DNA from: a virus
Direction: 5' to 3' (one strand)
Virus record (IMG/VR): IMGVR_UViG_3300009155_000038
DNA length: 64,000 nucleotides
The stretch's first letter is position 1. Each line of letters begins with the position of its first letter. Shown here one piece after another: positions 18,974-24,337 of the stretch. The position numbers were made by a program, and so were the translations under genes. The notes beneath the pieces are model-generated. The model was not told the origin of the DNA and ran no database searches. It worked only from the letters and a program-made list of their open reading frames with translations.

Positions 18974-20641
18974 CTACAGAATATCGTCAGCAAACCGGTC
19001 GATAGGAATAATCCGCCGACGCGGCTGCATATTGCGAACGTCGTCGGGGCCAACAGGCTCGACGTCGCCGCGCTTGATAATCTTTCGGGCGGCTTCACAC
19101 GCCTTGTACTGTTCGTTCACCAGATGCATGTCGACAACTGTGTCGTCCATGCGAATCAATCCCGTTGGCGTCCGCGGAACACCAGACCGAATCTTCGACC
19201 AGTTAATAGTCGAGACTCGGGTTTCTGTATCACGCGTGTTGATACACAAGCAGGCATGCAAATTCTCAGCGAATGCCTTTGAACCCTGCGCGTCAAGATG
19301 ATCCACGTAACGATACGCTGGAATCTTTTTGATATCACCGCCAGCCAACTGATGCGCCAGCATGATCGTGCAATTCAGCGGCACAGACACGTTCGTCCGC
19401 AGGTTGTCGGGCAGCATCTGCATCGGCCGCCACACCTGTTCCATGTTCTTCGTCCGCGTGTCTGTCGACAACTCACGGTTTAAGAGCAAACCCGCATAGT
19501 CGATAGCCACAAAGCCAATCGTCATGCCGCGACTTTCTGCCAGCTGCTGCAATACAGCCAGAATCTCAGGCACGCCACCGCTGCCGTGTCCGCCAGACGA
19601 TGCGTTCGCTGAGAAATCAAGAAACACAAAGTTCCGGTTCATCCAGATCTTGGATGCTTCCCATCGTTCTCGCTCACCGACCATGATCTCGCCGTTTTTG
19701 TTCTCCAGCAGCTCGCGGTCGTAGTCCTTGAGCGTGTCTCGGGTAGAGAACTGCTCCCAAAACTCAGACCCGGCCACGAACATATTGCGATTCACGTGAC
19801 TGGCAGCAGACCAGAACATGTGTTTCATCTTGGCGCCGCCGTCTTCGTAACCGATGAAGACAGACAGCTTGTTTTCGTTGTTGATGAAGAACTGCTGCGC
19901 CATACGTACGGCAGCTACCGACAACGCAGTAGTCTTACCGCCGGAGTATGGACCCAGCACACCGATGATGTCACCGGGCCGAAACCCTTCGATGTACTGA
20001 TCTACCCAAGGTAGCGTCGAAGGCGTAGGCGGTGGCGGCAACTCAATCGTCGTGCCGTAATCTGGCATGACTGCAGAGTTATCTGCGGAGCGGCCAATGA
20101 ACTGCACAGCTTGCGCCTGCTTGTGAAACCGCGACAACTGCGCTTCTAAATCAGTAACGACGACACCTTGGCCGGCATTAATAACCTGCTGTACGTTATG
20201 CTTGACAAGCCGGTCATTCATGAACCGCCGCAAGATACTATTAACGTGACTCTTGTCGGCAGTTTCTGCTGGCGCGTCTAGTGGCTCGCGCTCATAGGTT
20301 GTGTGAATAAACCCGTCTGGAGCAACTAGGTACTCGAAATCATCTTGCGACAGCGTGACGTGTCCAGACGTCCGCCAAGCACGCAGCTGCATAACGAGCA
20401 TGTCTCGTGTAAATGCGCCGTGCGATTTGTACAAGCCCTGCATGGCGCCGAACAAAAAGCAAAACTTCAGCTCGCCCGACCCTGATGCGCCGTTGAATAA
20501 GCTGGAGTCCAGCCCGACACGCAATGCCGATTTCAAGACTGTAGGGTAGTGAATCAAGCCGACAATCATCGCCTTGATTTCATCATATGTCAGCGCTTCT
20601 TCATATTGATCTCTTTTGGTGCGCGATCCGTCGCTAGCCAT
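18974..20641 (-). CDS. Replicative helicase, DnaB/SF4-like
   Basis: Walker A GPYSGGKTT, Walker B VAIDYAG, AHQL and K.R finger (SKIRSG); adjacent to the primase. Confidence 0.8.
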   Translation of the reverse strand: MASDGSRTKRDQYEEALTYDEIKAMIVGLIHYPTVLKSALRVGLDSSLFNGASGSGELKFCFLFGAMQGLYKSHGAFTRDMLVMQLRAWRTSGHVTLSQDDFEYLVAPDGFIHTTYEREPLDAPAETADKSHVNSILRRFMNDRLVKHNVQQVINAGQGVVVTDLEAQLSRFHKQAQAVQFIGRSADNSAVMPDYGTTIELPPPPTPSTLPWVDQYIEGFRPGDIIGVLGPYSGGKTTALSVAAVRMAQQFFINNENKLSVFIGYEDGGAKMKHMFWSAASHVNRNMFVAGSEFWEQFSTRDTLKDYDRELLENKNGEIMVGERERWEASKIWMNRNFVFLDFSANASSGGHGSGGVPEILAVLQQLAESRGMTIGFVAIDYAGLLLNRELSTDTRTKNMEQVWRPMQMLPDNLRTNVSVPLNCTIMLAHQLAGGDIKKIPAYRYVDHLDAQGSKAFAENLHACLCINTRDTETRVSTINWSKIRSGVPRTPTGLIRMDDTVVDMHLVNEQYKACEAARKIIKRGDVEPVGPDDVRNMQPRRRIIPIDRFADDIL

Positions 20642-21374
20642 TATATCCCCTCCAGTGTTGCCTAATTTGACGTACAGCCGCACGCAAATTGTCTGTAACC
20701 CACCACGCATAGTTCTGTTCTTTGGTGCGGCTAATCACGAAGTCGTAGGCACGCTGCTGCGCCTCGTACTCAATCGCGGCAAACCACAGATACCGCTCAA
20801 CCGCTCTGTCGCAGTGCCCTAGATCAGCAAATGCGTGACGAAAGAACGGCGGCGCTGATACATAGCTCTCGTCGCATAGTACGTATAGATTCTGGTCGTC
20901 TTTGGAAAACCCAAAAGCCGCGGAACTCTGCATACGCGACGCAATGGTGTAACCAGCAATCTCAAACTCTGTTTCAATATTGCGCGATAATTTTGCGCAG
21001 TATTTATCGTAGATCGTTTGCGAATTGGAAGCGCATAACATCGTGGGCCGCACTTCTGGTACGGACCGCGCTTGTGTAATTCTTAACTCAGCTTCCGGCG
21101 AAAAGTGCGCACGCACCCACATACCCGGATCAGCTGCTGATTCTTTGATAGCTCGGACAACTTTGCTCCACACCGCAGTGTGTTTTACGCCAAAGTTATC
21201 TTTACCGCCGTCCCAGTGCGGGCGACGTCTGACATGGGCACGGTCATCCCAGTCAACGGCTTTCTCATGCAAATAAATAAACTGGTAACGCACATACGCG
21301 GCGAGTTGTGCGGGAGTTAAATCCTTGTACCAGTCATACGCCATTAAAGGCGAATCAATCTCCGCCACCGCCAT
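20634..21374 (-). CDS. Hypothetical protein between SF2 helicase and replicative helicase (possible loader)
   Basis: ORF overlaps both neighbours. Start uncertain (21374-21398). Confidence 0.75.
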   Translation of the reverse strand: MAVAEIDSPLMAYDWYKDLTPAQLAAYVRYQFIYLHEKAVDWDDRAHVRRRPHWDGGKDNFGVKHTAVWSKVVRAIKESAADPGMWVRAHFSPEAELRITQARSVPEVRPTMLCASNSQTIYDKYCAKLSRNIETEFEIAGYTIASRMQSSAAFGFSKDDQNLYVLCDESYVSAPPFFRHAFADLGHCDRAVERYLWFAAIEYEAQQRAYDFVISRTKEQNYAWWVTDNLRAAVRQIRQHWRGYNG

Positions 21375-23386: not shown

Positions 23387-23389
23387 AAC

Positions 23390-24337
23390 TTATAGCTGCT
23401 CTTCCTGTTGCGTCATGTGCTCGGAATACGATAGGCACTCGGCCGGCGTTTTGAAAAACATACTCGGCACAAAGATACCGTCGTGCGCACCTTTCCGGCT
23501 ATGGAGAACATCCAGCCAGCTGTAACGCAAATACCGAATAAACGCCTGCGACGCCCGAAGGTCACCGCGGGCGCCGCCCTTTGCCGCCGTGTAAACACGG
23601 TACAGAAAATTAGCCGGATCGTGAAGATCGACTTCTTCGACTGGCTTTGTTTTCCATGCCGCTAACACGTTGGCACAGCGGAACTCTCGATGCCGCTGCA
23701 AAATACAGGTCGCGTCAGAAACACGAGCCTGTACCTGCGGCGTCAGTCCCAGAAACAACTCCAGCTTTCCAGAACGATCGGGCGAGCGGCGATCCACATA
23801 CCAACGTGGGTCGACAATCGTGGTTAGCAGCTTAGCCGTTTCTGGCTCAGATAGCGTGCCGATAAATAGCGCCGCTTTACGCACTGGATGAATCTGAAAG
23901 TACGCCTTTGCTGGCGCGTCGAACACAAAGTTCGTGCGCAGCATCCGGGCTAACATGGCATACGTCGGATAATCATGCATAGACACCGTGTGCCAACCGC
24001 CGGCCGCAGACGAAATGTCTACCGACCGCATGCGGCGCAATACTATTGACGGATCTTGAAGTTCCGACATTGCGTGCAGCACATTTGGCCCGGCTACCTC
24101 GACCGCCCGTATTTCGTTTTTATGTCGCCGCAAATACAGCGCTGAAAGCAATTCAGCATTCTGCGGCAAACCTAAAATACGGACGGTCACGCCCATGCCG
24201 CCGATTACAGACGAATTCAGAAACGCGTCGACAATCAACTCAGAATTGACAGGGGGCTCAATTCCAAGCGAATACCAGACGTGACCATTCTCGTCTGTGT
24301 ACAGCTTGATTATTTGTTCATCCAGTGCGATTGCCAT
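23390..24337 (-). CDS. IS110/Nop-domain-like protein, apparently catalytically inactive
   Basis: HPV..AALFIGTLSEPETAKLLTTIVDPRWY...KLELFLGLTP matches IS110 HP...L..IPG.G...AA.LL.EIGD..RF...L.AY.GL.P. DEDD acidic residues and catalytic Ser are not evident. Confidence 0.55.
   Translation of the reverse strand: MAIALDEQIIKLYTDENGHVWYSLGIEPPVNSELIVDAFLNSSVIGGMGVTVRILGLPQNAELLSALYLRRHKNEIRAVEVAGPNVLHAMSELQDPSIVLRRMRSVDISSAAGGWHTVSMHDYPTYAMLARMLRTNFVFDAPAKAYFQIHPVRKAALFIGTLSEPETAKLLTTIVDPRWYVDRRSPDRSGKLELFLGLTPQVQARVSDATCILQRHREFRCANVLAAWKTKPVEEVDLHDPANFLYRVYTAAKGGARGDLRASQAFIRYLRYSWLDVLHSRKGAHDGIFVPSMFFKTPAECLSYSEHMTQQEEQL

Follow-up and report, generated by a model that had tools for sequence, protein, structure and literature searches.

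A TasR/IS110-like protein and a minimal Cas7-like RAMP protein encoded together in the conserved replication operon of uncultured freshwater phages

Introduction

TasR proteins, the IS110 recombinases and Nop5 have a common build, in which a RuvC-like domain is followed by a Nop-like domain (PMC12045711; PMC11213020). TasR has four conserved acidic residues and is inactive as a D11A mutant, and in IS110 recombinases the catalytic serine lies on a beta-sheet in the C-terminal domain (PMC11213020). A second fold is represented by Vipr from phages, a minimal RAMP by which vrRNAs consisting of YNNGG repeats are coated; in some VIPR types, helicase accessory genes accompany it (bioRxiv 10.64898/2026.04.26.720920,.720927). 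Cas7 and Vipr RAMPs as well as Tas, IS110 and Nop5 scaffolds have been described as holders of guide RNAs. Here, we describe a locus in which both folds occur together, without an array, among conserved replication core genes. It is found in a 64-kb stretch of the IMG/VR record IMGVR_UViG_3300009155_000038 (hereafter the window), which derives from an uncultured lake phage with a genome of approximately 200 kb, and it encodes a TasR/IS110-like protein of 315 amino acids (aa), X315 (23390-24337, minus strand), and a minimal Cas7-like RAMP of 165 aa, Y165 (22889-23386, minus strand).

A first, sequence-only reading of the window had described four coupled genes between sbcC and the gene for a DnaB-like helicase, whose products it took to be a dead IS110/Nop-like protein, a Cas7-like RAMP, a superfamily 2 (SF2) helicase and a protein without assignment, and which it proposed to form an RNA-guided module. 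Using structure prediction, fold comparison and the analysis of related loci, we find that these four genes are fixed, single-copy core replication-recombination genes in a large freshwater clade of uncultured phages, whose genomes measure approximately 200-235 kb. Our literature search found no paper on a phage replication operon that encodes a Tas-like protein paired with a Cas7-like one. New is the combination of genes together with its replication context; the function we infer.

Results

The structure of Y165 was predicted with AlphaFold2 from an alignment of 31 homologues (pLDDT 84.7, pTM 0.78). A Foldseek search of the PDB with this model gave 70 matches at E<=1e-3 (best E value 3.4e-5, TM score 0.57-0.65), and all of the matches listed are CRISPR effector chains, namely type III Csm/Cmr, type VII, III-E gRAMP/Cas7-11 and I-B Cascade. 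Comparison with VIA-align, which is independent of Foldseek, gave Z scores of 10.6, 10.1, 9.6 and 9.3 against type III Csm, Cmr and Csm3 and type VII Cas7 chains, with 129-155 of the 165 residues aligned in these four best rows. The top 21 rows are Cas RAMPs throughout, and unrelated RRM-like proteins appear from a Z score of 7.4 downwards, with 95 residues aligned. A structure search of BFVD returned three matches at E<=1e-3, one of which is annotated as a Cas RAMP protein. In the model, strands 2-10 and 14-18 are followed by a helix (42-56), a hairpin (77-87/93-103), a second helix (121-135) and a last strand (150-157). The long beta-hairpin at residues 77-103 is found at the position of the thumb, and a glycine-rich loop, with invariant G132, K133, Y134 and G136 and, further on, Y147, G148 and T149, is located between the last helix and the last strand. 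Residue D33 is invariant within an F-D/E-R-D-P motif and is a candidate counterpart, no more, of the catalytic aspartate that Csm3 and Cmr4 RNases have in the loop behind strand 1. The protein is basic (isoelectric point (pI) 8.9) and has at least 221 metagenomic homologues, many of them on contigs of around 200 kb; identity across the clade is 56-94%, with 46 invariant columns in the 31-sequence alignment.

At the sequence level, no Pfam model, including PF03787, matched Y165 or any of the 31 homologues even at E<=10, and neither a PHROG nor a PDB sequence was matched in phmmer and profile searches. PF03787 also had no match in five complete relatives (G001-G005, the records of loci L002, L007, L031, L033 and L044; complete according to CheckV). 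At the level of the predicted fold, the assignment of Y165 as a minimal single-RRM RAMP similar to Cas7, Csm3, Cmr4 and Vipr is well supported. The protein shares its fold and the glycine-rich loop before the last strand with Cas7 backbone subunits (Csm3, Cmr4, type VII Cas7, Csf2), but it is much smaller, has no recognised Cas partners and no array and remains below every Pfam RAMP threshold. Like Vipr, it is a phage-encoded, stand-alone, minimal single-RRM RAMP with a G-loop and a thumb, a likeness that is drawn by description, as no Vipr entry is among the PDB result rows for Y165. In contrast to Vipr, however, it lacks a YNNGG vrRNA tract and long intergenic flanks, and its gene is a core replication gene rather than part of a two-gene locus. 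A further parallel is the haloarchaeal HRAMP system, in which diverged RAMP homologues likewise occur without a CRISPR array or adaptation genes (Koonin & Makarova 2022, PMC8730458). HRAMP is a cellular system with a presumed role in defence that combines Cas5 with Cas7 and nucleases, whereas Y165, encoded by a phage in its replication operon, has a Tas-like partner.

For X315, the AlphaFold2 model (pLDDT 88.3, pTM 0.87) shows a RuvC-like domain at the N terminus (approximately residues 1-118) and a helical Nop-like domain (approximately residues 123-309). The top Foldseek rows are the IS621 recombinase and TIGR-TasR, at an E value of only 0.02. With VIA-align, the best structural match is TasR (9mty_B; Z score 10.9, 233 residues aligned over residues 8-309, root-mean-square deviation 5.2). 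Residues 123-305 align with the Nop domain of TasH (Z score 9.0), and the N-terminal 110 residues alone give Z scores of 6-7 against RuvX, YqgF and poxvirus and phage RuvC resolvases. IS621 (PDB 8WT6/8WT9; Z score 8.2, 242 residues) and ISCro4 (9T56; Z score 7.6) align with X315 over its full length, with 219-243 residues. No Pfam, PHROG or PDB match was obtained by sequence, and among 51 X homologues PF02371 (Transposase_20) matched a single one weakly (E 0.077). For the proteins of the module, the ESM Atlas returned unnamed viral clusters only; a RAMP cluster at 0.75 is regarded as a lead and no more. Judged by its predicted structure, X315 descends from, or shares its fold with, the TasR/IS110/Nop5 scaffold. 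The fold calls made for both proteins from the sequence were thus borne out by the AlphaFold2 models and the two structure comparison methods.

The likeness to TasR (TaTasR, PDB 9MTY; Faure et al. 2025, PMC12045711, a group that includes nuclease-inactive forms and TasA) extends to the two-domain build, the length of around 300 aa and the phage-borne gene. Unlike TasR, X315 has no sequence similarity to these proteins, no conserved acidic tetrad and no TIGR array (edge/loop repeats with a period of approximately 36 nt), and since the genes overlap, there is no intergenic space beside X315 for such an array. X315 is also fixed in a replication operon beside a RAMP and a helicase, neither of which is mentioned as a partner in PMC12045711. 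In contrast to IS110 elements, it lacks a DEDD tetrad, is present as a single copy, and has no strands in the C-terminal domain of its model; because of the gene overlaps, a flanking region for a bridge RNA is likewise missing.

Catalytic positions were mapped in 51 diverse X homologues by secondary-structure position, without superposition. Position 15 is an aspartate in approximately 50% of the homologues and an alanine, histidine or glycine in close relatives of X315; position 80 is a glutamate in 57% and a glutamine in 31%; position 122 is an aspartate or glutamate in 98%; and position 125 is a serine or threonine and acidic in none. Full D-E-D combinations do not co-segregate across the homologues. 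It is fair to regard X315 as dead or, at the least, as not under selection for nuclease activity. The family has not conserved the tetrad, but the window protein itself keeps D15, E80 and D122. Given the non-conserved tetrad and the single copy of X, an active Holliday-junction resolvase and a live IS110 element are both rejected for now. Prediction of an X315-Y165 complex gave a score of 0.00, which is evidence neither way.

The gene order SbcD-SbcC-X-Y-SF2-Z-DnaB-primase-PolA is kept in 43 of 43 related IMG/VR loci, which were retrieved with a Y profile. Because the order is the same in all of these loci, the four-gene arrangement is not due to chance, and the synteny expected by the sequence-only reading was indeed seen. 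SbcC-X-Y-SF2 is also kept in L044 (from a 235-kb genome), L051 and L052, where the identity of X is only 27-29%. In L045, a distant lineage, X-SF2-Z is kept and 262 bp (8906-9168) without a credible open reading frame (ORF) are present at the position of Y. Additional DNA between X and Y was observed in L033 (6258-7995), where it contains three ORFs (189, 270 and 120 aa) without a Pfam match, and in L037 (around 6910-8000); X-Y translational coupling is therefore not universal. Each complete genome carries one copy of X and one of Y. In a profile search of 1.84 billion representative proteins, the X family comprised 828 clusters (50% identity) with a cut-off of E<=1e-3, of which 352 remained at E<=1e-30, and nearly all of the 150 hits listed are approximately 300-350 aa long. 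Searches of 50,697 GenBank phage records gave no match, either by tblastn with X, Y and the X protein of L044 or by blastn with the locus. Among 185,579 species-representative genomes of prokaryotes, X and Y occurred in only one, where they lie on a 13-kb contig of a metagenome-assembled genome. The sequencing runs listed as containing this DNA are freshwater DNA runs only, with no RNA run among them. A 477-aa protein derived from NCBI (P0390), encoded on a 3.2-kb contig, is an X-Y fusion, in which residues 5-293 are 36% identical to X315 and residues 318-451 are 47% identical to Y165. It could be a real fusion or the product of a lost stop codon or a sequencing error and, as a single sequence, is weak evidence for X-Y pairing.

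The third gene of the block (21355-22899, minus strand) encodes an XPB/UvsW-like SF2 helicase, an identity already read from the sequence and confirmed by Pfam and PHROGs. PF04851 (ResIII) matches above the cut-off (6.8e-10), PF00271 (Helicase_C) just below it (8.6e-5, 23.2 bits against a Pfam cut-off of 23.5 bits), and phrog_16 at 3.2e-31. Its nearest PDB sequence is an archaeal XPB-II (1.8e-8), and its N-terminal 120 aa or so form an uncharacterised region. In L005 (8392-11055), L006, L019, L027 and L033, one ORF of 887-919 aa encodes the helicase and includes, near the Walker A region, an insert of approximately 370-400 aa that is in frame. Pfam identifies the insert in L005, the only one scanned, as an intein with LAGLIDADG and Hint signatures. 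Inteins favour conserved sites of important genes, and as an intein host in several relatives the helicase looks like a conserved core gene. The fourth gene (20634-21398, start uncertain, minus strand) was assigned as an ORF for a protein of approximately 236-254 aa, Z254, which had been left without an identity and still matches nothing in Pfam, PHROG, PDB-profile and Atlas searches. Of the 43 clade loci, 42 keep it, the remaining one (L018) ending before the gene, and it is also present in L045. From its position only, its stop codon overlapping the DnaB start by 8 nt, Z254 is a candidate DnaB loader.

The coordinates and the description of the four coupled genes given earlier were correct according to ORFs, Pfam and PHROGs. 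The start codon (ATG) of X315 lies within a 20-nt overlap with the end of SbcC, and Y165 starts 3 nt past the X315 stop. The helicase ATG at 22899 gives an 11-nt overlap with the Y165 stop, and an alternative ATG at 22947 extends this to 59 nt. For Z254, the possible starts at 21398, 21395 and 21374 overlap with the helicase end and a start at 21344 leaves a 10-nt gap; its stop forms the 8-nt overlap with the ATG of the DnaB-like helicase gene. The surrounding genes are all on the minus strand. Directly upstream of the block are SbcD-like (26416-27585; Pfam/PHROGs) and SbcC/Rad50-like genes (24318-26474; PF02463/PF13476, phrog_77 at 1.4e-32), and on the other side are genes for the DnaB-like helicase (18974-20641; phrog_19 at 3.3e-14), a DnaG-type primase (17881-19098; phrog_47) and a PolA-type DNA polymerase (14722-17874; phrog_17), whose identity to the nearest cultured phages is only 21-25%. 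A RecA-like gene (11357-12730) lies just downstream of the replication operon and a gene for a gpA-type terminase is found at 53307-55220; with these two genes, the window is phage DNA. Elsewhere in the window, a 532-aa protein (57573-59171, minus strand) carries a T5orf172/MUG113 (GIY-YIG-like) domain at its C terminus, and an AAA ATPase of 495 aa is encoded at 47836-49323 (minus strand).

We searched for arrays that could supply a guide RNA. The window contains no tandem or interspersed repeat array and no CRISPR, no 7-10-mer recurring at a TIGR-like spacing of 28-60 nt, and no run of four or more YNNGG units on either strand, nor any 9-unit window with even five matching. Four complete relatives have no YNNGG tract, compared with 20 in locus L024, which served as positive control, and in the 43 loci no array of any type is present next to the genes. 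Cas1 was not found with Pfam in the five complete relatives, although divergent Cas proteins may escape these models, and no Cas5, Cas6, Cas10 or Cas11 partners were recognised. The claims that the window has no CRISPR array and no Cas1 and that X does not behave as an insertion sequence were confirmed by these searches and by the single copy of X. Nothing shows guidance by RNA, and since no CRISPR-, TIGR- or VIPR-type array was found, the proposal of an RNA-guided module is unproven.

Two regions had been suggested as guide RNA genes in trans, 29003-29175 and 34345-34548. The first corresponds to a structured RNA of around 178 nt (28999-29177, minus strand), which is fused 5' to tRNA-Gln (28932-29002) and located 4.7 kb upstream of the module. 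Compensatory changes are found in 17 of its 31 predicted pairs and, as judged by eye, a pseudoknot seems possible; Rfam has no family for it and detects only two tRNAs in the window. A covariance model found one copy in each of four relatives of approximately 205 kb and none in G005 (which holds L044), L045 and L052. It is thus a genuine structured RNA, but because it was not detected in deeper lineages that keep X-Y-SF2, it cannot be tied to the module and is rejected for now as an obligate partner. The second region is part of a leader (34322-34560, minus strand) that folds well (-87.6 kcal/mol, z -5.6 compared with shuffled controls), but nothing links this RNA to the module. In L024, a member of the clade, around six tandem units of approximately 90 nt, in which runs of GGYNN repeats are followed by a U-rich tail, resemble a VIPR-type vrRNA array (L024:314-830, plus strand). 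This array is located just past the RNA-tRNA-Gln locus and adjoins two ORFs (L024:834-1196 and L024:1193-1897) that occur in no other locus, which is why it looks like a separate inserted VIPR-like cassette. An hhalign comparison of the Y family with the 234-aa ORF beside the array gave a probability of 1%.

Discussion

The module lacks defining features of CRISPR, VIPR, TIGR-Tas and IS110 systems, be it arrays, conserved catalytic residues or mobility. Our preferred explanation, to which we give an even chance, is that X, Y, Z and the SF2 helicase act as one module that handles nucleic acids, without being programmable, for recombination- or R-loop-dependent replication. To this end, SbcCD would first process DNA ends. 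In a D-loop or R-loop intermediate, X315, probably as a dimer like Tas and Nop5, and Y165 would together grip a single strand, which could be single-stranded DNA or else RNA, as a primer or a transcript. The SF2 helicase would remodel the branch and Z254 might then hand the DnaB-like helicase onto it, after which the primase and PolA could start. Each of these binding and loading steps we infer, the observations being those on folds, gene order, conservation, copy number and the absence of arrays. The operon is similar to the genes for recombination-dependent replication in T4 (gp46/47, UvsX, UvsW, gp59, gp41, gp61, gp43, gp32) in that SbcCD, an SF2 helicase, a DnaB-like helicase, a primase and a polymerase are likewise encoded in it and a RecA-like gene lies close by. 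By contrast, the slots of gp32, UvsY, gp59 and gp49 would be taken here by three proteins of unrelated or unassigned fold, which might be functionally equivalent. Neither an OB-fold single-stranded DNA-binding protein (SSB; PF00436) nor RuvC was found with Pfam in the five complete relatives, and Endo VII is above the Pfam cut-off only in the one from the distant 235-kb lineage. As weak negative evidence, this leaves the strand-binding, mediator, loader and junction roles unassigned.

Several points weigh against this proposal. The module is known from sequences and predicted structures. The window X315 retains D15, E80 and D122, the tetrad was mapped by secondary-structure position rather than by superposition, and Y is not obligatory for X in every lineage, as it is lacking at its position in L045. 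Pfam models, on which the negative results for SSB and resolvases depend, may overlook phage proteins that are divergent, and a control search with the gp32 Pfam model gave no match anywhere and is therefore uninformative. In addition, all characterised relatives of both folds work, to our knowledge, with a dedicated guide RNA, so that a hidden guide is possible; this genome was searched over 64 kb.

Such a guide is central to the idea of a programmable module, which we regard as unlikely, though the least so of the alternatives. A guide RNA provided in trans would sit in the X315 Nop-like domain under a coat of Y165 and would lead the SF2 helicase, perhaps along with SbcCD, to specific DNA, either for origin or R-loop firing or for an attack on competing phages. 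This would agree with the description of both folds only as guide-RNA holders (PMC12045711; bioRxiv 10.64898/2026.04.26.720920), with VIPR types III-V, in which a minimal RAMP is accompanied by accessory genes for a helicase or nuclease (VIPR preprints), and with nuclease-dead and nuclease-free Tas proteins that exist and bind tigRNA (PMC12045711). A conserved structured RNA is also encoded 4.7 kb upstream on the same strand, and one clade member, L024, has a genuine YNNGG array beside the RNA-tRNA locus. However, arrays are absent from the window and from beside the genes in the 43 loci, four complete relatives have zero YNNGG tracts, the structured RNA is not detected in deeper X-Y-SF2 lineages, and the L024 array with its two L024-only ORFs looks like a separate cassette. 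Moreover, the fixed position, single copy and high conservation of the genes are unlike the patchy and variable TIGR and VIPR loci. A targeting of competing phages, as suggested earlier, does not fit genes that behave as fixed core replication genes and not as a variable defence or competition cassette.

Also unlikely, and placed by us after the programmable module, is a replication role on DNA only, in which Y165 replaces the missing SSB or recombination mediator and X315 is a structure-specific junction binder or residual resolvase. The absence of PF00436 and RuvC, with Endo VII in the distant genome only, would leave room for such proteins, and the Z scores of 6-7 of the X315 N-terminal domain against RuvC, RuvX and poxvirus resolvases, the approximately 98% conservation of D/E122 and the D15-E80-D122 residues of the window protein are consistent with a junction-related function, as is the basic pI of Y165 with strand binding. 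On the other hand, we know of no Cas7-type RAMP that acts as an SSB, the search of BFVD with the Y165 model gave RAMPs and not SSBs, and a lone mid-operon gene for 165 aa gives no indication of the high abundance that an SSB needs. Resolvase activity is also unlikely as the selected function, given that the tetrad is not conserved in the X family. It is doubtful, and ranked by us after the DNA-only role, that X315 and Y165 hold a phage RNA, either the tRNA-Gln-fused RNA or an origin transcript, open a specific R-loop together with the SF2 helicase and in this way start replication or recombination. Very improbable, finally, is that the two proteins are anti-defence decoys, which as array-less guide-RNA holders would sequester CRISPR RNA (crRNA) or tigRNA of the host or else poison its effector complexes. 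Phages carry Cas-like decoys and both X315 and Y165 lack evident catalytic sites, but anti-defence genes are usually variable, expressed early and peripheral, whereas these genes are fixed in the operon across lineages at 27% identity and coupled to genes for a helicase and DnaB.

Taken together, the X family consists of hundreds of sequence clusters from uncultured large phages. If the module is non-programmable, it would bear on the question of how RNA-guided systems originated from, or were recruited into, nucleic-acid metabolism. If an unrecognised guide RNA exists, the locus would encode a new type of RNA-guided machine. Opening of a specific R-loop with a phage RNA, if true, would make it a machine that initiates replication under RNA guidance, assembled from Tas-type and Cas7-type components and distinct from CRISPR, TIGR and VIPR. 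The small size of Y165 and X315 (165 and 315 aa) makes both ideas, the non-programmable and the guided one, directly testable.

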